Source: a virus (taxonomy: Duplodnaviria > Heunggongvirae > Uroviricota > Caudoviricetes). From it: DNA of 22,531 bases. Positions 1 through 21,158 of the stretch are shown one piece after another. The notes below the pieces were generated by a model that was given only the letters and a program-made list of their open reading frames with translations, did no database searches and had not been told where the DNA came from. The DNA is taken from the IMG/VR virus record IMGVR_UViG_2778261509_000018. One strand, given 5' to 3'. How positions within the stretch are numbered: the stretch's first letter is position 1; each line of letters starts with the position of its first letter. Position numbers and translations under genes: made by a program.

Positions 1-1434
1 ATGTCTGAATTTGAAGTGTTGGCACAGCATCTGCTGAAGGAAGCCGAGGCGGAAGAAAAGCTGCGACAGGAAAATGATAAAAAGCTTATCGAGAAAGTGC
101 TGGAAATCTATGATCAGAAGTATGTAGCTGAATTACTGAGAAAAGTCGGAAAAAATGAGTGGAGCCGTGAAACCATTAACCGCTGGATTAATGGCAAGTG
201 TTTACCAAAATCGTTGACTTCAGTAGAAGAGTCTCTTCTGCGTAAGATGCTACCAGAACCACCTGCAAACCATCCGGAATATGCTTTCCGCTTCATTGAC
301 TTATTTGCTGGAATTGGAGGGATACGGAAAGGTTTTGAGGCCATTGGAGGCCAGTGTGTTTTTACCAGTGAATGGAATAAAGATGCTGTGCGTACATACA
401 AGGCCAACTGGTTTAACGATGAACAGGTGCATAAATTCAATCTCGATATTCGGGAAGTCACGCTGAGTGATAAAACCGATGTATTGGAAACGGATGCTTA
501 TGCATATATTGATGAGCATGTGCCGGATCATGATGTGCTTCTTGCGGGGTTCCCGTGCCAGCCATTTAGCCTTGCTGGTGTTAGTAAGAAAAACTCACTT
601 GGTCGTGCGCATGGTTTTGAATGTGAAGCACAAGGAACACTTTTTTTTGACGTGGCACGTATTATACGAGCAAAAAAACCGGCAATTTTTGTGCTGGAAA
701 ATGTCAAAAATCTGAAGAGCCATGATAAGGGTAAAACTTTCAAAGTCATTATGGAGACCCTTGACGAGCTGGGCTACGAAGTTGCCGATGCTGCAGAAAT
801 GGGAAAAAACGATCCAAAGATTATCGATGGGAAGCATTTTTTGCCTCAGCATCGTGAACGCATTGTTCTGGTCGGATTTAGACGAGATCTGAATATTCAC
901 AAGGGGTTTACCTTGCGTGATATCAGTCGTTTTTATCCGGAACACCGCCCATCATTTGGTGAATTGCTGGAGCCTGTAGTCGACAGTAAATATATACTTA
1001 CGCCAAAACTATGGGAGTACCTTTATAACTACGCCAAAAAGCATGCAGCCAAGGGGAATGGTTTTGGCTTTGGGTTGGTCAATCCTGAGAATAAGGAAAG
1101 CATTGCACGCACACTTTCTGCCAGATATCACAAAGACGGATCAGAAATTCTTATTGATCGTGGTTGGGATATGGCAACGGGAGAGGCTGACTTTATGAAT
1201 GAGAGTAACCAGGCTCGTCGACCACGCAGGCTGACTCCCCGAGAGTGCGCACGCCTTATGGGGTTTGAAAAACCTGGAGGGAAACCATTCCGTATTCCGG
1301 TTTCAGATACTCAGTCATATCGGCAGTTCGGTAACTCCGTTGTGGTGCCAGTATTTGAAGCCGTTGCCAGACTTCTGGAACCCTATATCCTCAAAGCTGT
1401 TTCTGCTGATGCTGGTAAGACTGGGCAGCCTTGA
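1..1434 (+). CDS. ecoRIIM: DNA (cytosine-5)-methyltransferase, M.EcoRII/Dcm family (CCWGG-type), 477 aa
   Basis: Full-length ORF with canonical C5-MTase motifs: [10 protein letters not shown] (motif I, AdoMet binding), GFPCQPFS (motif IV, catalytic Cys), ENV (motif VI), [10 protein letters not shown] (motif X). Close overall resemblance to Dcm/M.EcoRII as I recall them, including the N-terminal extension. ATG is at window position 1, so the promoter lies outside the window. Confidence 0.93.
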
Positions 1435-1440
1435 GAACAC

Positions 1441-1463
1441 CTCCCGGCCTTTTAAGCCGGGAG
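1441..1463. terminator. Inverted repeat CTCCCGGC-N7-GCCGGGAG between the convergent M and R stop codons; candidate bidirectional terminator (no clear U-tract)
   Basis: Perfect 8-bp arms seen directly; located between stop at 1432-1434 (+) and stop at 1469-1471 (-). Confidence 0.35.
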
Positions 1464-1468
1464 TCAGC

Positions 1469-2677
1469 CTATGATAGTTCAGCGTAAAGTTCTATCAGCT
1501 CAGTAATGAATGCTCCGAGCGTTATTAATTCTTCTCTAACTGCTTCTGGGTATTTTTTATGTAAAGTTGATGGTACAACGAGTCTGACACCCGCATCTTT
1601 CATTTCTCGGTATTGTGCTGAAGAAACACCTTCTTGCAGCGTAAATAAATGTACCTGATGGATTTTATCTGCTTCATTCAGTATCTGACGCCAGCGATCT
1701 TTGCAGGTGGTCTTTACTGCCAGCATACGTAAGTTTTCTACAGGAAATTCAACGTCATGATATGCCTCTGCTGAAGGAAACAGGAAATCTGGTTTTTTAT
1801 TACCTTCAGTAACTGCCTGAGTGGAGAAATGTCGTAGTCCGTGCTCGATAAAAAGCTTCTCTAGGTGAAGTTCAAGTGATTTACCTGCCCTTGATTTACG
1901 TCGATTACTGACAGAGTTGGCTAATGCAATAAACTCATCTACAGAATTGAATCCTTTCTTAATAATATCAATAACATGTAATTCCTCGACGAGTAGAAAA
2001 ATATCATACTCGACACGCCGACGGTCAATCAGTTGCTCATCTGGATCCTTGGAGTTTTTAGCATAATGGCCAGCAGCATATTGAATAATTTCGTTTCCAG
2101 AAGGAAAACGCTTCTTCCAGTCTTCAGGAATAACATATTTATGATTTACTGGAGTTTGCTGAAGAGGCAATCCGCCCAAAATTTGTCCGGCAGGGCCGGA
2201 AATTAGGGTTCCAGGTATGATTTCGCCAATAGCAGACTCGATGATATCCTCTTCATCGGGATTGACGCAGACCCATATATCTACCTCGGAACAGTCAGTG
2301 TTCTGTTCGTTTAACCTGAAAGCAAGAATTGTGAGGGCTCCTGTATTTTCAGAGTTCTGTAATGGACTTCCTCTCCCCCAGCGCGTAATTCTTTTTTCGT
2401 TTCGGGTCTTACCAAAATAACGGTTGTTGTAATAAATTGCGCGTGCTTGGGTATCAGGGCAATCATGGGATGATACATGCGCAGTAAGGAAGACTGAAGG
2501 GTTCAGTTCGCGAGTATGATTGATAGAAGGAAAAAGCTTTTCAACGATATTTGAGGGGATATAAAGTCCGACCTGATGGCCACCTGTTGCGCCTGTGTCG
2601 TTTGCAGAAAGGCGTTTGATGTAGATAAAGTAATTCCCGCTTGCGATATCAAGCAGCCAGTTATGAAAAACCGACAT
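1469..2677 (-). CDS. ecoRIIR: Type IIE restriction endonuclease, EcoRII family (CCWGG-specific; N-terminal effector DNA-binding domain plus C-terminal catalytic domain)
   Basis: Translation (MSVFHNWLL...KRLSANDTGATGGHQVGLYIP...) closely matches R.EcoRII as I recall it. Convergent with the cognate MTase. Start placed at the second ATG (2675-2677), which has an AAGGG Shine-Dalgarno 6 nt upstream; the first in-frame ATG at 2681-2683 would give 404 aa. Confidence 0.88.
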   Translation of the reverse strand: MSVFHNWLLDIASGNYFIYIKRLSANDTGATGGHQVGLYIPSNIVEKLFPSINHTRELNPSVFLTAHVSSHDCPDTQARAIYYNNRYFGKTRNEKRITRWGRGSPLQNSENTGALTILAFRLNEQNTDCSEVDIWVCVNPDEEDIIESAIGEIIPGTLISGPAGQILGGLPLQQTPVNHKYVIPEDWKKRFPSGNEIIQYAAGHYAKNSKDPDEQLIDRRRVEYDIFLLVEELHVIDIIKKGFNSVDEFIALANSVSNRRKSRAGKSLELHLEKLFIEHGLRHFSTQAVTEGNKKPDFLFPSAEAYHDVEFPVENLRMLAVKTTCKDRWRQILNEADKIHQVHLFTLQEGVSSAQYREMKDAGVRLVVPSTLHKKYPEAVREELITLGAFITELIELYAELS

Positions 2678-2760
2678 ATACATCCCTTTGTTAACATACA
2701 GTCAGGGTTAACATTTTTCCATAGTTATAGATAAGCGGCTAGGAACTTAAGGGAAAAACA

Positions 2761-2784
2761 AAAAGCCCACATAAGCGGGCTTTT
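2761..2784. terminator. Bidirectional rho-independent terminator-like hairpin (AAAAGCCC-loop-GGGCTTTT)
   Basis: GC stem flanked by an A-tract on one side and a T-tract on the other; lies between the orphan gene and the endonuclease promoter region. Confidence 0.45.
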
Positions 2785-3434
2785 GTGTCACTCGAGAGCC
2801 GCGGCTCCTTTGCGTATCTTTTTTGTCTCCTCACCGTCTGGTCGGTGTCCTGCTGAGACTGCTAATTTCCTGTTTTTGTTAGTACTGTCCTAGAACTGTC
2901 CAATCATGATTGGTGGGCTGGCGGAGTTGAAACCGCAGACACGTCGTATGTAAGAACGTGCTGCGGCTGGCTGGCCAGCTTCTGATAGTGCGAATATTGA
3001 ATGATTTCTATCTGTTATAGATTTTACCGTATTTCGGCATGAATGAAACTGAATATCCTCCCACCGATTCTCCATGACTTTACGCCACTGTCTCTAGGGC
3101 TGCTATGTGCCAAGAGCGGACGTTGGTATGCAAGAGCCCTCCAAAAGTTGATGGTTGGTTTGCAGGGGGGCTTAAAGAAACTGCACTTATCAAGTTGAAG
3201 TTCTGTATTCAGCGAAATCGTAGCACTCTGACGATAAGTAACTCCGGTACCCCGCTCTTCGATGAAGAACCAGAGTAATCCCCCCGAAAAAATAGCGCAT
3301 CAAAATTGGATCTTCAGCGGTAGCTTATCGGCTATCGGAAGTACAGGTGTGGATTCGTGGTGAATTGCTTTGATAATAAACGATTAATACGGAAAAACGC
3401 ATTAATCATTTATTAGCTTTTAGTAAACCACAAT

Positions 3435-4784
3435 TTATTCCGTTTTACATATCATAGTAGTCGATTGGAGAATATAGTTTCTGGGAATGTACTCTTCAAA
3501 GTGTTCGTCCTTTTTAAATACATGAACTACATTTGGGAATAATTGATAGTCAACAGGGTGTATAGCGTTTGGATTATGGTACATGTATATGGCTGTACAC
3601 CATGGTTCTTGATAGTTAGGGTCACTTACATCGGCTGAAAATAGATGTGGGTCTGCATCCTGATCAGTTTTAACACCACTGACGTACACTTTGAATCCAC
3701 TCGCCTCTACACCTGCAAGAATTCCCATCCGGTTAAACTTAGGTATGGTTGCTTGAGTAGTGAGTAAAACGGCAGAAACATAATTATTTTGTTCTGAGCC
3801 AAAAAAGTTCGACTTGATACTTCTATTTTCATCTGTATGTCTTTCAATAGAAATGCCTGACTCAATATCAATCCCGTACAAATAGCTATGCAAGGCTTCG
3901 CTTGAGAAGGCCATGGACATTCTTTTTGAATAATCCTGCATTGCTATGACAAATGGTTTGTTCTTTGTATGGTTGAGTTCCCAGTAATGAACTTTCTCTG
4001 GCTCAGGGCAATGCCGGACTTTTTTTAATAAACTTCTTGCAAACTTAAAAGGCATGACATTTAGAACATGTCTTCTTAATTCATCCATCTGCTCATCGTT
4101 AATGACTTTTCTTTCAAGAGGGGCTTCTGCTTCAGCAATGCTTACAGCCTCTACAGCAATTTCCACTCCAAATTTAGATAGCAGAAAATCTGGTTGATTG
4201 TATTCTCTATTCATTTCAAAGTCGAGTTCATAAAATACAGCGTTCAAATATAATTCAAATAACCTTGAATTAAATGCATCACTTTGAAAATCTCTTATAA
4301 ATATTCCATCAGGATCTTTGAACCAGTATGCAAGTTCCTCAAGAACAATATATGCAGGGAAATGAAGAGGGTCTTCGATGAGCATTTTTATATAAATATT
4401 CCTTTTTTTCTCTGGGACTTTACTCAAGAATAATGAAAAAGGTTTGGTTGATTCATCGCCTTGCATGAATGTGCCGTTTTGGTGCTGCGCCAGCATCTTT
4501 GGTATGTCATCGTTTAAATTATTAAGCAAGACATCCATTGAGTCAAATGAAGCCAAGACGTTTATTGCTCTGAATTTTTTATCTAAATCCCGACCCAATA
4601 CTATTGCGTTAAAATCTTTATCAATATTACATATAATTATTGTGGATAACAATGTTATCCCATTCCCCTCATATTTAAACCAGCGTATCTCCTCAGAGAA
4701 TGTCTTAAGGTAAGGTGAGCGACCGTAAAAATAAATATCAAATTGTTCTTTGCTGATCTCACTGAAGTGTAATCCTGCGTTCAT
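3435..4784 (-). CDS. Hypothetical protein, 449 aa; AT-rich orphan gene, no motif recognised
   Basis: Long uninterrupted ORF in a region visibly more AT-rich than its flanks; separated from neighbours by about 650 bp and 500 bp of non-coding DNA; no recognisable catalytic motif by eye. Confidence 0.6.
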   Translation of the reverse strand: MNAGLHFSEISKEQFDIYFYGRSPYLKTFSEEIRWFKYEGNGITLLSTIIICNIDKDFNAIVLGRDLDKKFRAINVLASFDSMDVLLNNLNDDIPKMLAQHQNGTFMQGDESTKPFSLFLSKVPEKKRNIYIKMLIEDPLHFPAYIVLEELAYWFKDPDGIFIRDFQSDAFNSRLFELYLNAVFYELDFEMNREYNQPDFLLSKFGVEIAVEAVSIAEAEAPLERKVINDEQMDELRRHVLNVMPFKFARSLLKKVRHCPEPEKVHYWELNHTKNKPFVIAMQDYSKRMSMAFSSEALHSYLYGIDIESGISIERHTDENRSIKSNFFGSEQNNYVSAVLLTTQATIPKFNRMGILAGVEASGFKVYVSGVKTDQDADPHLFSADVSDPNYQEPWCTAIYMYHNPNAIHPVDYQLFPNVVHVFKKDEHFEEYIPRNYILQSTTMICKTE

Positions 4785-4906
4785 ACCAATTCCTTTTCAA
4801 TGAATAATTGGCCTTTAGGAGTGATTCCCTTTGTCTTTAATTCAGTTCTAACTAGTTCTTTAATCCAATAGCCTAAGCTCATCATGCAGTTGGATCATAA
4901 GACAAC

Positions 4907-4935
4907 GCCCTATAGTGCTCGTGATACTATAGGGC
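4907..4935. promoter_or_regulatory. Perfect 10-bp inverted repeat GCCCTATAGT-N9-ACTATAGGGC about 120 bp upstream of the orphan gene start
   Basis: Seen directly; position relative to the start at 4784 (- strand) suggests an operator or leader structure. Confidence 0.3.
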
Positions 4936-5309
4936 ATCTGACCACACTGTTAACTGGAGTAACGACTATGGCAGGAATACAGCATAACTAAACTCACCCC
5001 AAACTTACATAGCGCTTTCTGGCCGTGAGCATAACAAGGTCCGCTCCTCGCTCATAACAGACATTCACTACAGTTATGGTAGAAGGTATGCATGCTGGGT
5101 GGGGAAAGTATGAAGGAAAAGAAGACTGCTGCGCCGTTTGTCGTCACATTTATCTTCATTGGCTATGCAAGTCGTAATACAAGGTGGGACAAAACTGAGA
5201 CACATAAGGCCTCGCAATGACTTGCAAGGCTTTACATGTTTTGATGTGGTGGGACGTGTGAGCGCAGTGTTGATGGGGTAATGCTTTGAATTAGAAGCGG
5301 ATTCTTATA

Positions 5310-5355
5310 ATTCGTAATGCGAAGGTCGTAGGTTCGACTCCTATTATCGGCACCA
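5310..5355 (+). other. 3' fragment (about 46 nt) of tRNA-Thr(CGU) (thrW-type) ending in CCA; attachment-site core, not an intact tRNA
   Basis: ATTCGTAATGCGAAGGTCGTAGGTTCGACTCCTATTATCGGCACCA matches the anticodon loop to 3' end of tRNA-Thr(CGU) as I recall it. The upstream sequence lacks the GCCGATA acceptor 5' strand and D-arm, so no cloverleaf can form. Confidence 0.7.
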
Positions 5356-5372
5356 TTCAAACATCTCCCCAA

Positions 5373-5466
5373 GTCTACTAAAGTCTTTCAAAACCCCTTA
5401 TAATCCGCGTATTAAAGCCCCGTTCGTCTTTTGACGTCTACTAAAGTCCCTCAAAATCTACGGTCA
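5373..5466 (+). repeat. Two 21-bp direct repeats (GTCTACTAAAGTCYYTCAAAA) between the att core and int; candidate integrase arm-type binding sites
   Basis: Copies at 5373-5393 and 5446-5466, 19 of 21 identical, same orientation. Confidence 0.35.
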
Positions 5467-5520
5467 GATGGGGGTACTTATGGGGGTATTTGCTGTTCGG
5501 TTTAGTGGAGGTACCCCCAA

Positions 5521-6735
5521 GTGAAACTCAATGCCCGTCAAATAGACACAGCCAAGCCAAAAGAGAAGGCTTACAAGCTGGCCGATGGTGGCGGTTTGTA
5601 TCTCTTGGTAAAACCTAATGGAGGTAAATACTGGCGACTTAAATATCGTGTAGCTGGTAAAGAGAAGCTATTGGCACTAGGTGTTTATCCTGAGGTTACT
5701 CTAGCCGATGCTCGGGCAAAACGTGAAGATGCGAAAAGAGGTATCGCTGGTGGTATCGATCCGATGGAAGCGAAACGAGAGGAAAAGATTGCCCGGGAAA
5801 CGCAGTTAAACAACACCTTCAAAGATATTGCCCTTGAGTGGCACAGCAGCAAATTAAAAAAATGGTCTGCTGGTTATGCTTCAGACATCCTCGAAGCCTT
5901 CAACAAAGATGTGTTCCCTTACATTGGCAAAAAACCCATCGCCGAAATCAAACCACTTGAACTTCTGAATGTGCTGCGTCGCATCGAGGGGCGCGGTGCT
6001 ACAGAAAAAGCTAAAAAAGTGAGGCAACGGTGCGGGGAAGTTTTCCGCTATGCAATAGTCACTGGTCGCGCAGAGTATAACCCTGCACCAGACCTTACTA
6101 GCGCGATGCAAGGCCATGAATCTAATCATTACCCTTTCCTTACAGCCAAAGAATTACCTGATTTTTTCAAGGCATTGTCCAGTTACTCAGGAAGCGCATT
6201 GGTTGTTATGGCGGCTCGTCTACTGATTATCACCGGCTTGCGGACTGGCGAACTACGTGGCGCATTATGGGATGAAATTGATTTCAACAAGGCTATCTGG
6301 GAGATACCCGCTTCACGTATGAAAATGCGGCGGCCTCATATTGTGCCATTGTCTGAGCAGGCTCTTTCGCTTATTGGGAAGATTAGAGAAATAACAGGCA
6401 ATTACCCTCTTATGTTTCCCGGGCGCAATGATCCAAGGAAAACAATGAGCGAGGCCAGCATAAACCAAGTGTTTAAGCGCATTGGCTACGCTGGACGTGT
6501 AACTGGTCATGGGTTCCGGCACACTATGAGTACGATTTTGCATGAGCAGGGCTATAACACCGCGTGGATAGAAACGCAGCTCGCTCACGTTGATAAGAAC
6601 TCAATTCGTGGCACATACAACCATGCGCAATATCTGGATGGAAGGCGGGAGATGCTTCAATGGTATGCCGACTATATGGATTCTCTCGAGCATGACGGAA
6701 ATGTGGTGCATATGGTGTTTGAAAAACACGCATGA
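5521..6735 (+). CDS. Site-specific tyrosine integrase, P4 (IntA/IntS-like) family
   Basis: N-terminus AKPKEKAYKLADGGGLYLLVKPNGGKYWRLKYR is typical of P4-type integrases; catalytic-region motifs LRTGELR, HGFRHT and a C-terminal Tyr (RGTYNHAQY); GTG start with GGAGG 10 nt upstream; sits immediately 3' of the tRNA fragment. Confidence 0.93.
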   Translation: MKLNARQIDTAKPKEKAYKLADGGGLYLLVKPNGGKYWRLKYRVAGKEKLLALGVYPEVTLADARAKREDAKRGIAGGIDPMEAKREEKIARETQLNNTFKDIALEWHSSKLKKWSAGYASDILEAFNKDVFPYIGKKPIAEIKPLELLNVLRRIEGRGATEKAKKVRQRCGEVFRYAIVTGRAEYNPAPDLTSAMQGHESNHYPFLTAKELPDFFKALSSYSGSALVVMAARLLIITGLRTGELRGALWDEIDFNKAIWEIPASRMKMRRPHIVPLSEQALSLIGKIREITGNYPLMFPGRNDPRKTMSEASINQVFKRIGYAGRVTGHGFRHTMSTILHEQGYNTAWIETQLAHVDKNSIRGTYNHAQYLDGRREMLQWYADYMDSLEHDGNVVHMVFEKHA

Positions 6736-6879
6736 AACAACTGGACAAGTATACAGAGGTTTACTAAAGTATAGGGGAGTAGATTGATAAAAACTCACAG
6801 AGGATTGCTATTTAACAGTTAGCCCTGGAGAAGGGCAATCGCTCTTTTACAAACGAAGGTGTATTGAGCCTTCTACGTC

Positions 6880-6941
6880 GCTGACAAAGCGGAATGTTCT
6901 TTAACAGGCTTTGGCGCTGACAAAGCGCAATTGTTCTTTAA
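6880..6941 (+). repeat. Two imperfect about 25-bp direct repeats (GCTGACAAAGCG-N-TTCTTTAA) in the int-alpA intergenic region
   Basis: Seen directly at 6880-6904 and 6916-6941; a 15-bp-stem hairpin (7043-7077) lies nearby. Confidence 0.3.
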
Positions 6942-7163
6942 AACTACTGGATGTCACGCCTAATAGCGTGATCCTGCCGAAATGCAGGGTAGCTCTACCC
7001 TTGTGGAGCAAACAAACCAAAACAATCTGACTATCTTTTATAAAAGACCGCAATATGTTTTTCATATTGTGGTCTTTGGCGTATTCGACATTTGACGCAA
7101 ATAAAACTCTCGCCATTCGTTGCAGGAGGGGGTTATTGCGTCATTAGTACAGGATATTAATAA

Positions 7164-7367
7164 ATGGCTAATTACAATTCATTAATTCGTCTCTCTGAAG
7201 TTCAAAGGCGAACTGGTTATAGCAAAGCATGGATTTATCGTCTTATTAGTCAGGGGAGGTTCCCTAAACAGGTAAAAATTGGAAGTCGGGCAATTGCTTT
7301 TGTTGAGTCTGAAATAGATGAATGGATTGAGAAGTGTATATTAGAATCTAGAGACGAGGTGGCCTGA
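7164..7367 (+). CDS. alpA: AlpA-family phage transcriptional regulator / excisionase-like HTH protein
   Basis: 67-aa protein with LSEVQRRTGYSKAWIYRLISQGRFPKQVKIGSRAIAF, the classic AlpA/MerR-like HTH; position right after a P4-type integrase. Confidence 0.8.
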   Translation: MANYNSLIRLSEVQRRTGYSKAWIYRLISQGRFPKQVKIGSRAIAFVESEIDEWIEKCILESRDEVA

Positions 7368-7798
7368 TGGAAAAGAAAAACCGCCCATTACAGGCGGCTA
7401 ATTCAGATATTCGTGTATCTGATGTTACGCCCCTTACAAAATCCCCTCAAGCACCAAAGCGCACACCGAAAAAGCATCGTGCCAGAGTCTATATGCTGCG
7501 TACTGGTATAGAGGGATGGACAGAAAATGACATTCTTCGCTACTGCCGTCTGTCTTCTGGTCGTAACTATGCAACAGAGTTAGAACGCCAGCTTGGAATC
7601 ACTCTGGAGCGTATCGACGAAAAGAATCCTGATGGTATCGGAACACACCTTCGCTACCGTTTCTCCTGCCGTGGTGATGTTCTGAAAGTGATCACTCATA
7701 TTAACCATCTTGCGAACATAAATGATCACAACGGACTTTCTCAGCAGGAAATTGCCGACATTCTGAAACTCTACCCGGACGCGTTTAACGCCGCCTAA
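7367..7798 (+). CDS. Hypothetical protein (143 aa), translationally coupled to alpA
   Basis: Start overlaps the alpA stop (TGATG); basic N-terminus; no motif recognised. Confidence 0.55.
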   Translation: MEKKNRPLQAANSDIRVSDVTPLTKSPQAPKRTPKKHRARVYMLRTGIEGWTENDILRYCRLSSGRNYATELERQLGITLERIDEKNPDGIGTHLRYRFSCRGDVLKVITHINHLANINDHNGLSQQEIADILKLYPDAFNAA

Positions 7799-7810
7799 CG
7801 GAGACTGAAA

Positions 7811-8644
7811 ATGAACATCGAAAAAAGCAGATTAATTTCTGAGGCCGCCCCTCATCTGAACGCCTCTCTGGGCACAATTAACGGTAATGAATTTGCCGCA
7901 ATTGTCCCGGTTATTCCTGGTCATATCGGTGGGCGTGAAACCAATATTGTTAGCGCAAAAGCGTTACACAAAGCGTTGGGCGTGGGAAAAGACTTCTCTA
8001 CATGGATCACTGATCGCATCTCTGAATATGACTTCACCATTGGGCACGATTACTCAGTCCATAAAACTATTTCCCCAAATTTGGGGAAAATCCCGAATGG
8101 CGCGGCTTACAGCAAGATTAAGCAGTCTGGCAGACCCGGCAAAGACTATCTGTTAAGTGTCGGAATGGCGAAAGAACTGGCAATGATCGAACGCAATGAT
8201 CAGGGGCGCGCTATCCGCCGTTATTTCATCCAGTGCGAGGAAGAATTACAGCGTAGCGTGCCTGAAATCGCCGCCCGCTATCGTCGCCAGCTAAAAGCCC
8301 GTCTCAGTGCCGCAAACAACTTTAAGCCAATGTGCGATGCGCTGAATATGGCCCGTGCCGAGATGGGTAAAACGACGCAGCAACACCACTACACAAACGA
8401 GAGCAATATGATTTCTCGTATCGTTCTTGGTGGGCTAACTGCTAAACAGTGGGCGCGGATAAATGGCTATTCTGGCGAACCTCGCGACCATATGAACGCA
8501 GAACAACTTGAGCACCTCTCATATCTCGAAAGCACCAATATCACGTTAATTGATATGGGCATGGAATATGAGCAGCGCAAAGGAGAACTCACCCGACTGT
8601 CGCAACGCTGGCTCGCCAAGCGTCTGGAGGCGGTCAATGTTTAA
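7811..8644 (+). CDS. Phage antirepressor-like protein (AntA/KilAC-like domain)
   Basis: Segment FSTWITDRISEYDF...GKDYLLSVGMAKELAMIERNDQGRAIRRYFIQCEE resembles antirepressor/KilAC domains as I recall them; assignment by recollection only. Confidence 0.55.
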   Translation: MNIEKSRLISEAAPHLNASLGTINGNEFAAIVPVIPGHIGGRETNIVSAKALHKALGVGKDFSTWITDRISEYDFTIGHDYSVHKTISPNLGKIPNGAAYSKIKQSGRPGKDYLLSVGMAKELAMIERNDQGRAIRRYFIQCEEELQRSVPEIAARYRRQLKARLSAANNFKPMCDALNMARAEMGKTTQQHHYTNESNMISRIVLGGLTAKQWARINGYSGEPRDHMNAEQLEHLSYLESTNITLIDMGMEYEQRKGELTRLSQRWLAKRLEAVNV

Positions 8645-8819
8645 GCCGACAGGAACACCACAACCTCAAAAACGCTACAAAGATGCCCACGGAGCACTCG
8701 TTACTGTCGAAAGCGTGTCTCACAACCGAGTGACGTTTTATCGCGACGGGTATCAATCGCCATGCGTACAACCGCTGGCGCGTTTCATGAAGGAGTTCGC
8801 GGAGGTTAACAAATGCTAA
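8637..8819 (+). CDS. Small hypothetical protein (60 aa)
   Basis: ATG overlaps the upstream stop (AATGTTTAA); the longer upstream extension in the ORF track is in a different frame from the preceding gene and is unlikely to be used. Confidence 0.35.
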   Translation: MFKPTGTPQPQKRYKDAHGALVTVESVSHNRVTFYRDGYQSPCVQPLARFMKEFAEVNKC

Positions 8820-9841
8820 CCGTCCAGAAGAAGACATTTTCACTGGCTGGTATGTCGCCAAAATCCAGCAATATGACAGCAAAGTCAGGCATTAATACAG
8901 CAGATACAAGCAAAGTTTATCATTTGCTGGTGGTAGGAGCGGATGCCTTAACTATGTCAGAAATTACGGTCGATGGTGTTAGCGTTGAGAAGGTCAGCGG
9001 CTGCGCCAGAGAATTTCTGGTCGTAGATCACCTGTTCTGCTCGTGTAGTGACTCCACAAAAACATTCGTCCACGTGCGTGACGTTAACGAAATGAGCGCG
9101 ATGTATTGTGCATCTGGTGCTTCCAATAGTGAGTTTTCGGAGTCCATAAAAAAGAGCTTGCCGTTATGCGGCAACACGGTTTATGGTTATAAGGCACCTC
9201 ATAAAACGGGTGCCGGGATTAGGACCCCGCAGGCAATCGAGGCGATACATGACGCGCCAGCGTCTTTTTTTGTATCGGCGCACACGCACACCTTATCAAT
9301 GGTGGGCTGTATGGGGCTGACTTCGGTCAGGCTGGTTTCCTTGATTGCCAGTAGTCCTAACCCTGTACAGTCCACCGCCAGCGAGCTTAGGACCTCCGGC
9401 GGTGGCTATAAACCATCAATCAAGGAGGCTGCCACATGCTGGCTACTACCCCTACCCAAAAACCGCAATTTATCTGGATTATCGCCGCAGTTCGCCGCGA
9501 TTGCCCGACAATTACCGCCAAAATTCATCATATTGCTGCCGAGTCTGAACGCGATGCTCGCCGTTCTCTGGTGCGCGATCACGTCTGCTTTTTTGCTGGT
9601 CGTATCCGCATGGAGGTGGCACATGATTAAAACCTACGATGTGCATATGGATCCCCTCGAACGCACAAGCCAGATCATCACACTGACAGAAGTGATTAAC
9701 GACATTCTGGTGAGCAACTCTCCCTCACGAGACGAAAGGCTGAAGGCGTTACTCGCGATATTGGATCTCGCCGTTCGTGACGTTCATTTCCTGCTGGAAG
9801 GTGGACAAATGCCAGTAAAAACGGGGGCAACCAATGAATAA
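8813..9841 (+). CDS. Uncertain long ORF (342 aa, Cys/Ser-rich); possibly two genes read through (8813 to about 9430, and 9623-9841, 72 aa)
   Basis: Open frame with ATG overlapping the previous stop (ATGCTAA); completely overlaps the Icd-like ORF in another frame; internal ATG at 9623 overlaps the Icd-like stop (ATGATTAA). Confidence 0.25.
9436..9630 (+). CDS. Host cell division inhibitor Icd-like small protein (64 aa)
   Basis: Strong Shine-Dalgarno AAGGAGG at 9422-9428, 7 nt before the ATG; sequence ([17 protein letters not shown]...) resembles Icd-like proteins of P4-like elements as I recall them. Confidence 0.4.
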   Translation: MLATTPTQKPQFIWIIAAVRRDCPTITAKIHHIAAESERDARRSLVRDHVCFFAGRIRMEVAHD

Positions 9842-10028
9842 CTCAATTAATACCCCTCGCCTTACGTCCGCACTTCAATTAATCGAGCAAGCAGCGGCTG
9901 TCCTGGTTGCTGTCAGTCTTTCGGCTGAAGAAATGGACGCTGCTGATGTCGTGGATGCGATTAAAGCGTGCTCATCTTTGGTTAACGATGCCCGTGCCGA
10001 GCTGGTAATTCTTGGGGGTGAAAAATGA
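9834..10028 (+). CDS. Small hypothetical protein (64 aa)
   Basis: Start overlaps the upstream stop (ATGAATAA); part of the coupled gene chain. Confidence 0.4.
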   Translation: MNNSINTPRLTSALQLIEQAAAVLVAVSLSAEEMDAADVVDAIKACSSLVNDARAELVILGGEK

Positions 10029-10288
10029 ATATCAACTTAATTTATCGTCATCCGTGTGAGCTGGAAATTGAATCATTGCTGGGGCGCGAAGAGCCATATC
10101 CAGACACATTCACTCCCGCAGATTGCGCGACTGAACGGCTTACCAGAGCGCGCACAGGTCTGGTTCATGTGATGAATGAGATTGTTCCCTCGGTGGGAGG
10201 GGAACAGGCGACAGTAATCAATAGCTGGCTACAAAAAGTTACCTCCCTGATAGATATCGGTTTAATCGATGTGGAGAGTGCGAAATGA
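10025..10288 (+). CDS. Small hypothetical protein (87 aa)
   Basis: ATGA start/stop overlap with the upstream ORF. Confidence 0.4.
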   Translation: MNINLIYRHPCELEIESLLGREEPYPDTFTPADCATERLTRARTGLVHVMNEIVPSVGGEQATVINSWLQKVTSLIDIGLIDVESAK

Positions 10289-10506
10289 CCAACATCCAGC
10301 TCATTGAAGCGCAATGTCGCATCGAACAGGTTCAGACTGTTTTAGGGTTCTGGCTTGAAGGGGCCAGCCCCAGCAACAGAGACAAGTTAATGATTGGCGC
10401 GGTTATGTCACTGCTCAATGGCGTACCAGAAGCTATTCAGGAAGCGGACGAATTGTTGGGCAAATATGAGTTACAGAATCATTCAGGCGAGGCGAAACAT
10501 GAATAA
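10285..10506 (+). CDS. Small hypothetical protein (73 aa)
   Basis: ATGA start/stop overlap with the upstream ORF. Confidence 0.4.
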   Translation: MTNIQLIEAQCRIEQVQTVLGFWLEGASPSNRDKLMIGAVMSLLNGVPEAIQEADELLGKYELQNHSGEAKHE

Positions 10507-11101
10507 TTTCTTAACTTTCCATGCAGAAGCAACGCCTGACGGCGTAAACATCATGTACCGCAGCAACGATGGCATGACAGAACGCGTTGAGGCCGTCTCA
10601 TATATTGATGCCGTAAATCGTCTGGATGCCGGGGATTATGACGATAAACCAGATGAAGGCATGTTTATACATCTCGCTATTGCCAGTGGCGGCAACCAGG
10701 GATATTTCGATTACACATCACAGCATCACGTGATTATGTGGCGCTGGCTGATAGCAACAGCATTCATCAATGAAATGAGAAAGGAAAACGGCACCGTCAG
10801 CATTATTGATGACAGTGGCAATCATTCCGTGGTTTCTGTTTATTCCAATGGCATCGTCGCCATGCCGCTGTATCCAGTAGCAGAGCGCCTCGCTATGGCA
10901 AACAACATTGAGGGCGCAATGATCGAGAAATATGGTGTTGATGTCGGAACAAAGAATGCCATCATTTTTTACAGCAACATGTTCGATGTCGAACAGGGAA
11001 CACTCACTTCGTTTGGGCGAGAAGTGCTTGCCGATCTTCACAACAGCTTTATTGCCGAACTAAACGAAAACGGCATCCCAGAAGCACCAGTGACGCACTA
11101 A
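10499..11101 (+). CDS. Hypothetical protein (200 aa)
   Basis: Start chosen at the ATG overlapping the upstream stop (ATGAATAA) rather than the track start at 10394, which overlaps the previous gene in another frame. Confidence 0.5.
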   Translation: MNNFLTFHAEATPDGVNIMYRSNDGMTERVEAVSYIDAVNRLDAGDYDDKPDEGMFIHLAIASGGNQGYFDYTSQHHVIMWRWLIATAFINEMRKENGTVSIIDDSGNHSVVSVYSNGIVAMPLYPVAERLAMANNIEGAMIEKYGVDVGTKNAIIFYSNMFDVEQGTLTSFGREVLADLHNSFIAELNENGIPEAPVTH

Positions 11102-11113
11102 ACGGGGGCCAGA

Positions 11114-13465
11114 ATGCGAAACATTGATCTTATCCGTCAGGTTATCAGTGCGTCTGAAAACAACTGGCCTCATGTGCTGGGCTGCCTGAACATAAATGTC
11201 CCTGACTCTCCGCGCCGTCATGCTCCCTGCCCTGCATGTGGGGGCAAAGATCGATTCCGGTTCGATGACAACGGGCGCGGTAGCTTCATCTGTAATCAGT
11301 GCGGCGCTGGTGATGGGCTGGATTTAATTAAACGCGTAAATAACTGCGACACAACAGAGGCGGCGCTTCTTGCCGCTGATGTTCTGGGTATTGATTACCG
11401 GACAACGGAAACACCAGAAGCCACCAGCCAGAAACGGGAACAACTGGAAACCGAGCGCCAGCGACGCGAACAGGAGCGCCTGAAAAGGGCAGAGAAGGAC
11501 GAACAACAAAGACGGGATACGTTTTCCCGTCAGTTTGATGACATGCGCAGAAAGGCTGTAAACGGCAAATCTGATTATCTGGTTGCGAAAGGGGTAGGTG
11601 ATTTTACATTCCCCGTGTTGCCCGATGGATCTCTGTTGCTGGCGCTGGTGGATAAATCCGGCGCAGTCACAGCAGCACAGACTATTACCCCACATGGTGA
11701 AAAAAGACTCCTGACAGGTTCGGCAAAGCGGGGGGCATATCACGCCATAAACGCACAGAAACGACCTCACAGCATCATAATTGCTGAGGGGGTGGCTACC
11801 GCCCTGTCGTGCCATTTAATTCGCCCTGACGCAATGACAGTGGCAGCAATCGACGCTGGCAACCTGTTGCCAGTAGCGGAAGTCATGCGCAGAACATATC
11901 CGCAGGCACAAATAATCATTGCCGCAGATAACGATCACCAGCAAGGAGACTCAGAAAGTGGAGGGATCAACACGGGGAAAGATGCCGCAGAGAGGGCCGC
12001 TATTTCCGTAGCTGGCAGGGTGTCTCTGCCACCGACTGACTATAAAGCCGACTGGAACGACTATCACCAACAACACGGGCTGGCGGCAGCCACAGCAGCA
12101 TTTAAAGATTCGATGTACCAGCCACGGGGGAAAGGGGCGCAGGTGAAAAATCACAAACAGTCAGTCGGGGCGCTGAATGAGATCAGTTCTGGCGAGGTGT
12201 TAAGCGATGATGAAATTGCTGTCCTCGAAGAAATCAACCGGACGTTTACGCATGTCACCATCGGCGGGAAACACAAGGTGGTGTCGCTAAAGCCTTCTCA
12301 AACCGGCGGTGTATCGCACGTTTTCGAGGATTTATCACAATTTCAGCATTATTTTCATCATAAACCGAGAGTCGCCAGAAAGCTGGCGGGATCGGCGTGG
12401 CTGTCATGGAGTGGGAAGAACTACAAGCCAGGAGGCGTAGGATTTTATCCAGTACCAGACAAATGCCCTGACGATGTTTTTAATCTGTATGAGGGGCTGG
12501 CACTGGAACCAATTGAAGGAGATTGCACGGTATACCTTAATCACCTGTTGCAGGTTGTCTGTGCCGGTAATGAAGAGGCATGCCAATATCTTATCCAGTG
12601 GATGGCGCACATTATCCAAAAGCCTGATGAAAAACCGTCCGTGGCAATCGTGATGAAATCTGTCCCGGGCACAGGGAAAGGCACAACGGTTAAACCGCTG
12701 CTGCAAATACTGGGGCAGTACGCCGCCCACATTAACGGGGCGGGACATATTTCAGGGCGCTTCAATTCAATACTTGCTAACAAGCTACTGGTATTTGCTG
12801 ACGAAGTGACGATCCACAAGCCGTCTGAAGCTGACAGACTTAAAGCGATTATTAGCGAACCGACGTTTAACCTTGAGCGCAAGGGAATTGATGCTGAACC
12901 AATGCCGAATTTTGCCCGGTTGATATTTGCCAGTAACAGCACACAGGTATTACAGGCAGGGATAAGAGAGCGTCGCTATCTCGTGCTTGAGCCATCTCCT
13001 GAAAAAGCACAGAGCCGGGAGTATTTTGATCGGCTGTACAGTTGGCTTAATGATGGCGGTGCCGCAAAGTTGCTTTGGCATCTTAAAGGGGTGGATCTCT
13101 CAGGTTTTGACCCTCAACGAGCGCCACAGACCGATGCCTTACGTGAAGAAATCTTGCTGGGGCTGTCTGGCGTTGAATTGTTTCTTTATGGCGAGCTAAT
13201 CAATGAACCTCCGTTTAATGGCGAAGTCCGTTTGTTTGCAAAGGATATGGTTAGTCGGTTTGTAGCGTGGTCGCTTGAGCGTGGGGAAAAGCTTAAAGAA
13301 CCAGCTGCCAGATCACTACTGGGTAAATCACTTGCACAAATGGGGCTGGTGAAGCATGGAAGACCAGACCGAGGGAATGGCGTGTTCTACGAACTACCAG
13401 AGGTCGGAGTTCTACAGGCTGCGTTTGCCCGTCTGATCGGTATGGGGGGTTATGATGTTTTTTAA
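11114..13465 (+). CDS. P4 alpha-type replication protein: zinc-binding primase (Toprim) fused to a D5-like helicase domain
   Basis: Zn-ribbon CPACGG...CNQCG near the N-terminus, Toprim-like IIIAEGVATALS and DNDHQ, Walker A VPGTGKGT and Walker B-like LLVFADE in the C-terminal half; 783 aa; downstream of int/alpA as in P4-like elements. Confidence 0.9.
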   Translation: MRNIDLIRQVISASENNWPHVLGCLNINVPDSPRRHAPCPACGGKDRFRFDDNGRGSFICNQCGAGDGLDLIKRVNNCDTTEAALLAADVLGIDYRTTETPEATSQKREQLETERQRREQERLKRAEKDEQQRRDTFSRQFDDMRRKAVNGKSDYLVAKGVGDFTFPVLPDGSLLLALVDKSGAVTAAQTITPHGEKRLLTGSAKRGAYHAINAQKRPHSIIIAEGVATALSCHLIRPDAMTVAAIDAGNLLPVAEVMRRTYPQAQIIIAADNDHQQGDSESGGINTGKDAAERAAISVAGRVSLPPTDYKADWNDYHQQHGLAAATAAFKDSMYQPRGKGAQVKNHKQSVGALNEISSGEVLSDDEIAVLEEINRTFTHVTIGGKHKVVSLKPSQTGGVSHVFEDLSQFQHYFHHKPRVARKLAGSAWLSWSGKNYKPGGVGFYPVPDKCPDDVFNLYEGLALEPIEGDCTVYLNHLLQVVCAGNEEACQYLIQWMAHIIQKPDEKPSVAIVMKSVPGTGKGTTVKPLLQILGQYAAHINGAGHISGRFNSILANKLLVFADEVTIHKPSEADRLKAIISEPTFNLERKGIDAEPMPNFARLIFASNSTQVLQAGIRERRYLVLEPSPEKAQSREYFDRLYSWLNDGGAAKLLWHLKGVDLSGFDPQRAPQTDALREEILLGLSGVELFLYGELINEPPFNGEVRLFAKDMVSRFVAWSLERGEKLKEPAARSLLGKSLAQMGLVKHGRPDRGNGVFYELPEVGVLQAAFARLIGMGGYDVF

Positions 13466-13494
13466 TATAGTCTTTTTACAAGAAGATCGTTTTT

Positions 13495-13598
13495 ACCTGT
13501 ACCACCTATACCACTTTGCTAATTCAGTATTAAAAACAATGTGTTATAGTGGTACAGGTCAATATCTTACCTATACCAGACCTGTACCACCTATACCA
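13495..13598. repeat. Iteron cluster 1: repeated CCTRTACCA 9-mers (within ACCTGTACCACCTATACCA units) in both orientations; candidate replication origin
   Basis: Direct units at 13495-13513 and 13580-13598, a partial unit at 13568-13578, and an inverted TGGTACAGGT at 13550-13559; immediately 3' of the primase-helicase gene. Confidence 0.5.
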
Positions 13599-13641
13599 TT
13601 AACAAACGCATTTCTTCTGGCTGGCTGAGAGGGAACAGCCA

Positions 13642-13872
13642 ATGATGAGCACACCATTTTACAAAGTGCGCCAGTTAGCTTCTTCCTCTGGCTGGCAGCT
13701 ACGGTTTGAGGGGCGTTCAGACTGGCTACCCATTGCGGCATGGGCGAATGTTGAAATGTGTATTGACGGCGATACCGTTGAAATCATTATTCCCTGCGTG
13801 GCAAGTCGGGACGGCTGTATAGAGCCAACAGATATGGCAGCAGAAATCAGAGAGGTAAAACATGAACAATAA
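13642..13872 (+). CDS. Small hypothetical protein (76 aa)
   Basis: ORF between the two iteron clusters; weak GAGGG Shine-Dalgarno; overlaps the start of the next ORF. Confidence 0.4.
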   Translation: MMSTPFYKVRQLASSSGWQLRFEGRSDWLPIAAWANVEMCIDGDTVEIIIPCVASRDGCIEPTDMAAEIREVKHEQ

Positions 13873-14599
13873 CTATTGCATACCGCAGGGAATGACCAGA
13901 ACGGAGCGCGAAGAATTAAAAAGTTTCGCTACACAGTGCGGGAATGCTGGCGACATCCAAAGTCTGGAACGCACTTTAATTATGATTGCGCACTGGATGC
14001 GTCAGGGGCAAAGGGTTTCATTTACTGAATATGCCAGCCAGTGGACAGAGGCACAGCGCGAACGGAGCGACGGTAATCACTCAACACCCGAAATGGCGAA
14101 GCAATGGCCTTTCAGTGGTAAACGCTGTATCAGTCCCGGTGGTTCAGATTATTACCCTGCTGGTGTGGGAGATGAGCCATGTTGTGACGAGACTGAAATC
14201 CGCCACGCAGTGACAGTAATTACCGCTGAATACCCACAATTTAACCTTGACGGACTGGCGCTCCACAACCGGAATGCGGACTGGGAAAACCCGCTTGATA
14301 ACCCGTCATTTATCGTATCGGCGAAAAGCTGCCTGAGATGGATCAGAGACAACGGGATGAGTAATGCCCAGATTGAGAGCTTCCCGCAGGATAACCCCAC
14401 ATCTGACACGTTGAAGCATGAAGTGGAGCGATATAACCAGATAAACCACCAGCACAGTGATCACCCGCACTATATCCCCAACGGAGCATTTATTGCGGCG
14501 ATGGTGGCAAGCGGCTACAAGGTTAAGCCAGCGGGAAGAATGAACGCATTTTTCAATATTTCAAAAAAAGGATTATGTGCTGCTATGGGTAAAAATTAA
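13862..14599 (+). CDS. Hypothetical protein (245 aa)
   Basis: Uninterrupted ORF with start overlapping the previous gene; no motif recognised. Confidence 0.55.
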   Translation: MNNNYCIPQGMTRTEREELKSFATQCGNAGDIQSLERTLIMIAHWMRQGQRVSFTEYASQWTEAQRERSDGNHSTPEMAKQWPFSGKRCISPGGSDYYPAGVGDEPCCDETEIRHAVTVITAEYPQFNLDGLALHNRNADWENPLDNPSFIVSAKSCLRWIRDNGMSNAQIESFPQDNPTSDTLKHEVERYNQINHQHSDHPHYIPNGAFIAAMVASGYKVKPAGRMNAFFNISKKGLCAAMGKN

Positions 14600-14605
14600 A
14601 TAAAT

Positions 14606-14709
14606 GGTACAGGTCTGTACAGGTGGGGAGAGGTCATTTTTACCCACCTGTACCACCTGCAGGCCGCGCTACACAAGGGTTTGTGACATGGTGGTACAGG
14701 TGGTACAGC
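14606..14709. repeat. Iteron cluster 2: TGGTACAGG / CCTGTACCA copies in both orientations
   Basis: TGGTACAGG at 14606-14614, CTGTACAGG at 14617-14625, CCTGTACCA at 14648-14656, tandem TGGTACAGG-TGGTACAG at 14693-14709; same 9-mer family as cluster 1, about 1.05 kb away. Confidence 0.5.
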
Positions 14710-15073
14710 AAAAACAGCGATTTTCTTTATAAGGTATGTTTTGCTCATCTGGCAGACGGAGGTATTCGCTGCGGTTTGGCACGTAGCCCAGAACAGCAAA
14801 GAGTTTTACGAGACTTTTGTAAAATCCAGTGTACAAGGGCGTGACGTTTTTGAAGGAGAGACCTACGAAATTTTCGTAGTTCAAAAAATAGCCTCTGAGA
14901 TGTTGTTATGCCTGTTCAGCAAACCATCCGCATAGCTGATCGCGAATCAAATTACCAATGGAGCCAGAAGCAAGGGCAGAACTGGAAAGCGCCTGCCGTG
15001 AAGAGTAATGCGACATCATAAATATAGTTTTTAGAGTCCATAAAAAACCTGTCAAAACCTGACATACAGAACG

Positions 15074-15107
15074 ATGCCACCAGCTACTGAGCGGTGGCAT
15101 TTTTTTG
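15074..15107 (+). terminator. Strong rho-independent terminator (ATGCCACC-N11-GGTGGCAT followed by T7)
   Basis: Perfect 8-bp GC-rich stem plus a run of seven T; ends an about 400-bp stretch with no convincing ORF. Confidence 0.6.
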
Positions 15108-15140
15108 TGCTATTTGTTTCATATTTTGCAATCACAATGA

Positions 15141-15176
15141 TGAATGTTGCGTTTTGTGAAACTATAATGACTGTTG
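15141..15176 (+). promoter_or_regulatory. Candidate promoter for the 15202-18951 operon (-10 TATAAT at 15164-15169)
   Basis: Consensus -10 hexamer about 35 nt upstream of the first ORF start; the -35 element is weak. Confidence 0.3.
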
Positions 15177-15201
15177 TTTTATACAGTTCTAAGGGGACGT
15201 T

Positions 15202-15375
15202 ATGGCTATTTCAGTAAAGCCAGTATTGATAAGTGAGAAGCAAATGGAAGCGATAAAGAAAATTCAGGAGGAGCAGCGTAAAAAATCAGAGGTAGGAGTT
15301 GCGCCAACGATCCACGAAATTGCTCGGGGATTAATGGATAAGGCGCTGGCTTACACTTTAACTGGACGTGGGTAA
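15202..15375 (+). CDS. Small hypothetical protein (57 aa), first gene of the cargo operon
   Basis: Not in the ORF track (below its size cutoff); AAGGGGA Shine-Dalgarno 5 nt upstream of the ATG; its stop is 4 nt before the next start; possible small DNA-binding or regulatory protein. Confidence 0.4.
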   Translation: MAISVKPVLISEKQMEAIKKIQEEQRKKSEVGVAPTIHEIARGLMDKALAYTLTGRG

Positions 15376-15379
15376 ATTT

Positions 15380-18951: not shown

Positions 18952-18969
18952 CTGGTTAGCCATGGATGG

Positions 18970-19389
18970 CTAATTTTTGTTCTTTGCTCTCATCCATAGG
19001 TAAAGAAGGGAAAGAACAAGACAAAAAACAGAGAATAGATAACCTACCTCATATGGTGCGCCAAAAAAATTAGCTATTGATACGGGCAAAAAAGCTGAAG
19101 CGATCAAAATTGAAAGGCAAAAAATAAGCCCAGTAATATAGTTTATTAAATTCTTAAATGAGAAACGTTTTGCTTGATTTACGGTCTTAACGAACGATCG
19201 CTTAACGACGGATAAAAGCAAATAGATGGCGACAGTTGCTAATGCCCCTTTCCACCAGTCTGGATATAGTTTTGCGACAATCAGACCAAGTAAAACCATG
19301 ATGACAGCCTGAGCATTCACACCAACCCTCCCTTTAGCTTTGTTTAGAATGGCAATCATCATATATCCAAGACATGGCATTTGGTACAT
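18970..19389 (-). CDS. Small polytopic inner-membrane protein (139 aa, 3-4 predicted TM helices); immunity-like candidate
   Basis: Four hydrophobic stretches (AQAVIMVLLGLIVAKL, ALATVAIYLLLSVV, ITGLIFCLSILIASAFLPVSIANFF, YLFSVFCLVLSLLYLWM); AT-rich; convergent with the 701-aa gene, 19 bp downstream of it. Confidence 0.55.
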   Translation of the reverse strand: MYQMPCLGYMMIAILNKAKGRVGVNAQAVIMVLLGLIVAKLYPDWWKGALATVAIYLLLSVVKRSFVKTVNQAKRFSFKNLINYITGLIFCLSILIASAFLPVSIANFFGAPYEVGYLFSVFCLVLSLLYLWMRAKNKN

Positions 19390-19435
19390 AGCTTGGGTCG
19401 GGATTTCAAATCCGCTCCCAGTTGATGGGGCCGTT

Positions 19436-19830
19436 ACAGTACGCGCATATCCGCTTTATGTGAAACAGGAAGATTTTTCTGATATCACTGCCACAGCAAA
19501 ACACCAATTTCGAGACAAGTACGCGCGCGAGGGGTATCAGTTGCAAAAAATTTTGCAACTACGTCCGACCAGTACGCGCACGATGGAGGGGAGTACCATA
19601 AAACTGTTCTCTACATAAGTCAGAGTAGTGGTGATGTGTTGATTATCGGCGTATATGCGCACAGGACGCGCTATGACGATGTTTTATGCGGGTACACCAA
19701 TCACATGTATCTGGTGTGATAAATCGCGTTACATGACCTCTCATGTTGTGCTGGTGGTTATCACGACTTTCTGAATCTGGCCTTTGCCTGATATTTTGCG
19801 ACAAGTACGCGCGCGTAGCATCGAAATTAT
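19436..19830. repeat. Cluster of AGTACGCGC(GCG) GC-alternating palindromic repeats (copies at 19436, 19514, 19567, 19810)
   Basis: Shared core ATTTYG-N-GACAAGTACGCGCGCG at 19514-19529 and 19810-19830, containing the palindrome TACGCGCGCGTA; degenerate copies at 19436-19450 and 19567-19582; an 8-bp inverted repeat TTGCAAAA-AA-TTTTGCAA at 19541-19558 lies between copies. Confidence 0.45.
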
Positions 19831-21157: not shown

Positions 21158-21158
21158 A

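Follow-up and report, generated by a model that had tools for sequence, protein, structure and literature searches.

Half a tRNA-Thr gene as the probable seam between an SfIV/P22-type prophage and a P4-related island integrated in tandem at Escherichia coli thrW

The window analysed here is a stretch of 22,531 nucleotides from a virus of the class Caudoviricetes (IMG/VR record IMGVR_UViG_2778261509_000018). Its left part carries a restriction–modification (R-M) pair and a defence gene and ends at the 3' portion of a tRNA gene, behind which an integrase gene and the genes of an island follow. The left part and the tRNA fragment comprise the following features.

1–1434, plus strand: C5 cytosine DNA methyltransferase (Pfam DNA_methylase, 4.4e-78; DNA_meth_N, 6.6e-27)
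1469–2683, minus strand: EcoRII-like type II restriction endonuclease (Pfam EcoRII-N, 4.7e-60; EcoRII-C, 1.5e-71; PADLOC REase_II, 5.9e-233)
3435–4784, minus strand: PD-T7-1 anti-phage defence protein (PADLOC PD-T7-1, 2.8e-156, over residues 8–447 of 449 amino acids)
5040–5309, no strand: putative phage-side P arm of an SfIV/P22-type attachment site, forming the left half of attR; conserved in ~166 genomes
5310–5355, plus strand: 3' fragment of thrW, putative attR core of the left prophage, the 3' end of which would double as the attL core of the island
5339–5357, plus strand: island core TCCTATTATCGGCACCATT, ~19 nt, in the 3' part of the thrW fragment

The methyltransferase gene is annotated as DNA cytosine methyltransferase in E. 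coli HeN100. The gene at 3435–4784 had been described as an orphan; its product has zero Pfam matches, and PADLOC identifies it as the PD-T7-1 defence gene.

The sequence at 5310–5355, ATTCGTAATGCGAAGGTCGTAGGTTCGACTCCTATTATCGGCACCA, matches positions 31–76 of the intact thrW gene (tRNA-Thr, CGU) at 46 of 46 positions, the reference being the copy in E. coli STW0522-31 (locus L004, 7971–8046), which ARAGORN calls as tRNA-Thr with anticodon cgt. Over the 30 positions upstream of the fragment the agreement with thrW falls to 8/30, and the 5' half of the gene is absent. ARAGORN finds zero tRNA genes in the whole window, the same tool recovering tRNA-Thr(cgt) in loci L003, L004 and L005, and Rfam at its gathering thresholds also returns zero tRNAs. 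In a permissive search of 5150–5560 the Rfam tRNA model reaches 14.2 bits, below its threshold of 29; the search otherwise returned two sub-threshold families at chance level, and no other structure is claimed. The 3'-terminal 25 nt of the fragment are found once in the window (0 expected from shuffles). The original prediction of a 46-nt 3' portion of tRNA-Thr(CGU) without its 5' half thus holds on the exact match to thrW, and its proviso that the upstream sequence might fold into a complete tRNA finds no support from either program.

The occupancy of thrW was surveyed in 5426 complete E. coli genomes. An empty site was rebuilt by joining proA-thrW to the sequence that follows the far-end core of the island. 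The rebuilt site is present with 100% identity in strain PEC395 and contiguous in 948 of the 5426 genomes, in the arrangement proA-thrW-TTAAAATCAAAGAG...-yagP'. Behind the CCA end of the tRNA gene, the chromosome thus continues with TTAAAATCAAAGAG... into the yagP remnant, and everything between thrW and this flank is inserted DNA. The island integrase directly follows thrW in 719 genomes (13%; proA-thrW-int query), and the tandem junction of the window is found in about 166 (~3%). The best coverage of the window by any single genome of the collection is 78%.

In the ~166 E. coli genomes with the junction, the sequence from ~5040 through the integrase gene is common and the cargo to the left differs, for which reason 5040–5309 is read as a phage-side arm and 5310–5355 as an attR core. 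Records of P22, ES18, SfI, SfII and HK446 designate these 46 nt as the attP core, and P22 is 100% identical over 5302–5355, that is, including 8 nt to the left of the tRNA-derived core. According to the genome paper on SfIV, this phage integrates into thrW and its prophage has the attP sequence of 46 bp on either side (PMC3851460). The window thus contains both the 46-bp core identical to thrW and the phage-specific flank expected of a P22/SfIV-type attachment site. Phage phi458 is 92.5% identical to 5040–5357; it was dropped as an example of a contiguous attP, its record being rearranged and carrying IS elements.

The closest proxy for the left element is HeN100, which is 99.5% identical to window positions 1–6918. 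In this strain a prophage that looks complete carries the genes of the left part of the window behind its tail and baseplate genes, and at its other end an integrase gene lies 14 nt from an intact thrW, convergent with it; proA adjoins thrW. Two exact copies of the 46-nt sequence occur in HeN100, 42,093 bp apart, the second of them inside the intact thrW beside the prophage integrase gene. The integrase shares 99.7% identity with Int of Shigella phage SfIV and 89.5% with its counterpart in a P22-like Salmonella phage; the cognate SfIV-family integrase, convergent with thrW, would lie beyond the window and is seen in this proxy. These comparisons support the reading of 1–5309 as the far end of an SfIV/P22-type prophage with defence cargo.

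In the SfIV-like prophage, the EcoRII-type R-M pair and PD-T7-1 occupy the space from the tail-fibre genes to attR. The same slot is taken by a DUF262 gene and the reverse transcriptase of retron Ec67 in strain PK8276, which also has different tail genes, and by gtr serotype-conversion genes in Shigella phages. It is a variable cargo hotspot with its right boundary at ~5040. The sequence upstream of the PD-T7-1 gene (4790–5062) is 97–99% identical to non-coding DNA in the Yersinia phages vB_YpM_46 and VB-YPM-4 (~32 kb) and in phage mEp460, which suggests that a PD-T7-1 cassette may move as a unit between unrelated phages. Within the attR arm, 5039–5244 is 90% identical to a stretch at ~26.7–26.9 kb of many lambda-family phage records, and a hairpin with a 9-bp stem is located at 5209–5230.

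To the right of the tRNA fragment, the window contains the following genes and regions.

5521–6735, plus strand: P4/CP4-type tyrosine integrase, apparently intact, with a GTG start and 404 amino acids
7164–7367, plus strand: AlpA-family small DNA-binding protein, candidate excisionase or regulator (Pfam Phage_AlpA, 7.4e-20)
7367–22531, plus strand: remainder of the island in the window, collinear at 99.99–100% with L004 and L005
7811–8644, plus strand: AntA, island gene
9194–9382, plus strand: Ash/Icd-like ORF region with C4 and isrK RNA motifs (Rfam)
11114–13465, plus strand: P4-alpha-like primase-helicase (Zn-ribbon, Toprim, DUF5906)
15368–18951, plus strand: P22 gp20- and gp16-like ejection proteins, full-length homologues
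20195–21157, plus strand: AbiD (PADLOC, 2.7e-57; Pfam Abi_2, 3.6e-52)
21767–22048, plus strand: PerC-family activator, distal cargo of the island

The integrase matches the Pfam domains Arm-DNA-bind_3 (1.4e-28), Phage_int_M (1.3e-34) and Phage_integrase (1.1e-26), all above their cut-offs, and its matches in the PDB are integrase domains of CPS-53 and CP4-like elements (middle domain with CPS-53 entry 2kj8, 1.3e-35). The motifs LRTGELR, HGFRHT and RGTYNH are present in the translation. The protein thus combines the arm-binding N-terminal domain, the SAM-like middle domain and the catalytic R..HxxR..Y residues of a P4/CP4-type integrase and appears to be intact. Its gene starts 165 nt downstream of the 46-nt fragment. 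The same distance separates the integrase gene from an intact thrW in L004, L008 and L011, where it is co-oriented behind the 3' end of the tRNA.

From exactly 5310 to its end, the window is 99.99–100% identical to STW0522-31, 18AR0366 and several other strains, in which this sequence directly adjoins an intact thrW, the gene order being proA, thrW, int. The island measures 18.4 kb and its far end lies ~1.2 kb past the end of the window. In L004 it ends at 26439–26456, 18,409 bp from the equivalent thrW position, and its last 1.2 kb hold only a pRiA4b ORF-3 gene and a hypothetical gene. A DUF4222 protein is also encoded on the island. The AbiD/PerC segment varies by strain, HeN100 having other genes between the primase and PerC.

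An isrK motif (63 bits) and a C4 antisense RNA (80.2 bits) are adjacent at 9194–9382, inside an ORF of the 'ash family' (8813–9841) that has AntA upstream and an Icd-like annotation in HeN100. From these matches, the region looks like the immI-like RNA immunity region of P1/P7 or the CI-like one of P4.

The gp20-like protein matches Pfam Inj_translocase (6.8e-85) and phrog_917 (5.8e-144), and the gp16-like protein matches phrog_770 (4.1e-163). Apart from these ejection-protein genes the island has zero virion genes; a partial third ejection-protein gene lies upstream in PK8276. A literature search returned no report of phage satellites with ejection proteins. They might, for instance, serve to exploit a helper or in exclusion, or be a relic acquired by recombination from a P22-like neighbour at thrW.

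Of the features of P4-like satellites, the integrase, AlpA and the alpha-type primase-helicase are all present, and among the ORFs scanned in 6736–22531 no match to Psu, Ogr/Delta or Sid was detected with Pfam, PHROG or PADLOC. Since sid, psu and delta are missing, the island is not classified as a canonical P4-like satellite; it is a P4-related island and probably a phage satellite. We regard it as quite unlikely that the island represents a distinct P4-related satellite lineage with its own P22-type ejection proteins whose placement behind an SfIV/P22-type prophage is functional (for example through helper–satellite coupling in cis, or coordinated excision via the nested cores) and not a by-product of a common tRNA target.

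The attachment cores of the two elements can be told apart at the far end of the island. There, in L001, L002, L004, L005 and L012, the sequence TCCTATTATCG-CACCATT forms an imperfect copy of the thrW 3' end, ~18 nt long and lacking one G, after which the flank is identical to that of the empty sites. A full 46-bp repeat at the far end was considered and rejected; besides thrW itself, each locus has only one exact 46-mer. The three sites of the island accordingly read ...TCCTATTATCGGCACCATT followed by AAAATC (attB), ...TCCTATTATCGGCACCATT followed by CAAACA (attL) and ...TCCTATTATCG-CACCATT followed by AAAATC (attR). Two diverged islands, those of L004 and L012, have the single-G form, as do three further loci, and the 1-nt deletion is most simply seen as a property that the attP of this island family would carry. 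If the deletion belongs to the family attP, strand exchange would occur to its right, within CACCATT (5351–5357), a segment comprising the discriminator base, CCA and the two following T residues.

Extending the sequence to the right had been expected to reveal another copy of the ~46-bp core. A further copy of the thrW 3' end does exist ~1.2 kb past the end of the window, at ~18 nt and imperfect rather than ~46 bp. The 46-nt fragment had likewise been proposed as the direct repeat shared by both elements; it is a real core, with the qualification that the full 46 nt are those of the phage and the island uses only the last ~19 nt.

The leader between the core and int contains repeats of two kinds.

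5373–5393, plus strand: direct repeat copy 1, containing a GTCTACTAAAGTC box, upstream of a TATAAT hexamer (5399–5404)
5436–5456, plus strand: direct repeat copy 2, agreeing with copy 1 at 19/21 positions
5469–5488, plus strand: two direct TGGGGGTA boxes, 12 nt apart (starts at 5469 and 5481), candidate arm-type sites of the integrase in the P' arm
5512–5519, minus strand: TGGGGGTA box in inverted orientation, placed after the GGAGG ribosome-binding site and before the GTG of int; candidate site of autoregulation

Two 21-bp direct repeats had been described from the letters alone; both are real, and the second is found at 5436–5456 and not, as then given, at 5446–5466, a shift of 10. The 13-mer GTCTACTAAAGTC occurs exactly at 5373 and 5436 (0.02 expected), and the GTCTACTAAAGTC box and the TATAAT are kept in diverged thrW integrase leaders. 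A consensus promoter and terminator scan of 4700–5700 gave no sigma-70-like site in the int leader (5356–5520) at the scan threshold, and the TATAAT is therefore treated as a conserved hexamer only, not as a demonstrated promoter. At a guess, the GTCTACTAAAGTC boxes that flank it are possibly sites for an AlpA-type factor.

The inverted repeat GGGGGTA...TACCCCC previously pointed out before int is also real and proves richer, with two direct copies and one inverted copy of TGGGGGTA. All three copies in the whole 22.5-kb window lie here (0.54 expected; 1 of 100 shuffles reached three). The 33-kb locus L004 has five copies, all at the ends of the island, three by int and two (26357 and 26369) ~65 nt inside the far-end core. 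In an alignment of the core-to-int leaders of six thrW-associated integrases, the arrangement with two boxes direct and one inverted is kept, the sequence of the boxes varying with the integrase. The direct and inverted boxes are TGGGGGTA and TACCCCCA in the window island, TGTGTATA and TATACACA in the second element of 18AR0366, and GGGGGCAT and ATGCCCCC in FDAARGOS_1248, for which the inverted copy is also given as TGCCCCCA. FDAARGOS_1248 carries a different island of ~42 kb, with type I R-M, Ag43 and CbtA/YeeU genes. At its far end, two GGGGGCAT boxes are spaced alike and stand equally far from the same degenerate core, and GGGGGCAT occupies all five equivalent positions.

Such co-variation between both ends of each element is the pattern expected of arm-type integrase sites flanking an attP core, and the TGGGGGTA boxes are accordingly taken as putative binding sites of the N-terminal arm domain of the integrase. 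The earlier impression that the repeats look like recombination-site architecture is thereby strengthened, TGGGGGTA recurring at the other end of the island and co-varying in a diverged relative. In KplE1, where int follows the tRNA gene in the same orientation, attL overlaps the int promoter and IntS represses its own gene, and Panis et al. predict int autoregulation to be general for tRNA-then-int arrangements (PMC2951348). By analogy, the inverted box over the translation start region probably mediates negative autoregulation of int. A related leader in strain S88 (L009, 1425–3273) has 82.5% DNA identity and one TGGGGGTA box pair deleted; thrW is followed there by a truncated related integrase gene and then by the vat autotransporter toxin gene, and the locus is a decayed island at thrW.

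On this evidence, the half tRNA gene is best read as the seam of two mobile elements inserted in tandem at E. coli thrW, and 5310–5520 is very probably the internal junction of an array of two independent integrative elements, both at this tRNA gene. A partial tRNA repeat is found at the junction and another at the far end, the latter read in other strains; both elements come with an integrase of their own and are found singly elsewhere, and the empty site is known. The intact tRNA that should stand at the end of the array is not in the window and is present in HeN100 (42.1 kb away) and in 18AR0366; for the source genome, we infer the intact thrW and the right end of the island from these near-identical genomes. 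The proposal of tandemly integrated islands, with the DNA to the left as the distal end of a different element, is thus borne out by the 99.5% match of the HeN100 junction and by the 100% identical island standing alone elsewhere. The suggested extension to the left, followed in HeN100 (99.5% identical over 1–6918), leads to an intact thrW 42.1 kb upstream beside the integrase of the left element.

The array can be accounted for by two tyrosine integrases that would target nested cores in the 3' end of one tRNA gene, each integration restoring thrW at the proA side. The SfIV/P22-type phage integrase, encoded outside the window, would recombine a core of 46 bp that matches the 3' part of thrW exactly, rebuilding the tRNA at the left end of the prophage and leaving a 46-nt duplicate (attR) at its right end. 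For the island, the 165 nt between core and int would serve as the P' arm. Since integrase and arms are retained in both elements, each should be able to excise by itself. The predicted attP of the excised prophage consists of window positions 5040–5355 joined to the int-side arm TTTAAATCAATAAG, and that of the excised island of the right arm ...TGGGGGTACTTTTGGGGGTAT...GTGTATTGTT joined to TCCTATTATCG-CACCATTCAAACATC.

A truncation of thrW by an unrelated insertion or rearrangement, with DNA to the left that is not a thrW element, would agree with the window containing neither an intact tRNA nor a second copy. The breakpoint at 5310, however, coincides exactly with the annotated boundary of the attP core of P22, SfI and SfII, and the 8 nt to its left are those of P22 attP. 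Moreover, HeN100 has the same junction together with an intact thrW and an SfIV-type integrase gene 42 kb away, and the left flank from 5040 is common to ~166 genomes with different cargo, making such an accident extremely improbable. The adjacency of prophage and island in ~166 genomes could also mean that they form one composite unit that moves together, the half tRNA being an inert scar. This is exceedingly hard to reconcile with the island standing alone at thrW in 719 genomes, with SfIV-type phages existing as free phage genomes and with a left partner that varies (R-M and PD-T7-1 in HeN100, retron Ec67 cargo and different tail genes in PK8276), and with both elements retaining an integrase and arms.

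Which element integrated first makes no difference to the resulting sequence. An SfIV-type phage may have entered thrW first, and the island later the attR fragment of the prophage as a secondary attB without the 5' half of the tRNA. Two points speak for this order, which we hold to be a serious possibility though not the favoured one: the 46-nt fragment holds the whole 19-nt core of the island, and in 18AR0366 the island lies between thrW and a phage remnant, showing that both array positions occur. With the phage already in place, thrW and the 46-nt fragment would both be open to the island. Against it, the sequence is identical under either order, the island is 100% identical in many phage-free strains, and an island-first history fits at least as well. 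The far end of the island (~18 nt) would not supply the 46-nt core that the phage requires; had the island come first, the intact thrW would be the only usable target left, and the phage would automatically land between thrW and the island, as seen in the window.

The locus of 18AR0366 (L005, 8971–46540) is a three-element array at thrW. It runs from thrW through the window island, a short degenerate core, a decayed SfIV-like remnant and the 46-nt thrW fragment (39359–39404) to a second P4-like element with a reverse transcriptase gene, psu and ogr/delta, and ends in a deletion into paoA.

The tandem arrangement at thrW is already known, common and well understood, and it is textbook knowledge that P22 and the serotype-converting phages of Shigella use a 46-bp core in thrW. 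The attP or attR sites of SfI, SfII, SfIV, SfV and P22 at thrW have the same 46-bp core, P22 has the same 8-nt left flank, and SfIV Int is 99.7% identical to the integrase of the proxy strain. Where the Shigella phages carry gtr O-antigen modification genes by attP (PMC3851460), the window has the EcoRII-type R-M genes and PD-T7-1. Tandem arrays at one attB, in which the core is restored at both ends, a second element can enter either copy and the neighbours are diverse, have been described by Mageeney et al. (2020, PMC7192596); the mechanism is the same, and the window adds nested cores of 46 nt and ~19 nt.

A partial thrW also marks the far boundary of CP4-6 in K-12, upstream of the yagP remnant, as the thrW/ptwF pair, a likeness taken from records and a paper only: the pair is named in the record notes of HK446 and mEpX2, and ptwF-intF in PMC2951348. 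In CP4-6 the partial copy is a terminal repeat by the divergent intF, whereas in the window it is internal and followed by a co-oriented P4-type integrase gene. KplE1 (CPS-53), with IntS and attL at argW, has the same co-oriented int behind the tRNA ('STI'), an attL overlapping int regulation and arm-type sites in the leader (Panis et al. 2010, PMC2951348); it differs in its tRNA target and site sequences, and regulation in the window island is predicted only. With satellite P4 and P4-like elements the island shares a P4/CP4-type integrase by a tRNA 3' end, a core of ~19–20 bp, AlpA, an alpha-like primase-helicase and a C4/CI-type RNA motif. Instead of sid, psu and delta, however, it carries P22-type ejection proteins, AntA, AbiD and PerC.

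Current understanding of integration at tRNA genes is unchanged by the locus. For annotation, a 46-nt half tRNA before an integrase gene ought to be taken as the attR of an upstream SfIV/P22-type prophage, and both elements can be delimited to the base. The locus offers a clear case of two integrase families with nested cores (46 nt and ~19 nt) in one tRNA 3' end. The nested cores also allow the crossover region of the island to be placed, by inference, in CACCATT, and if the island arrived first, the nesting would fix the order of the array.
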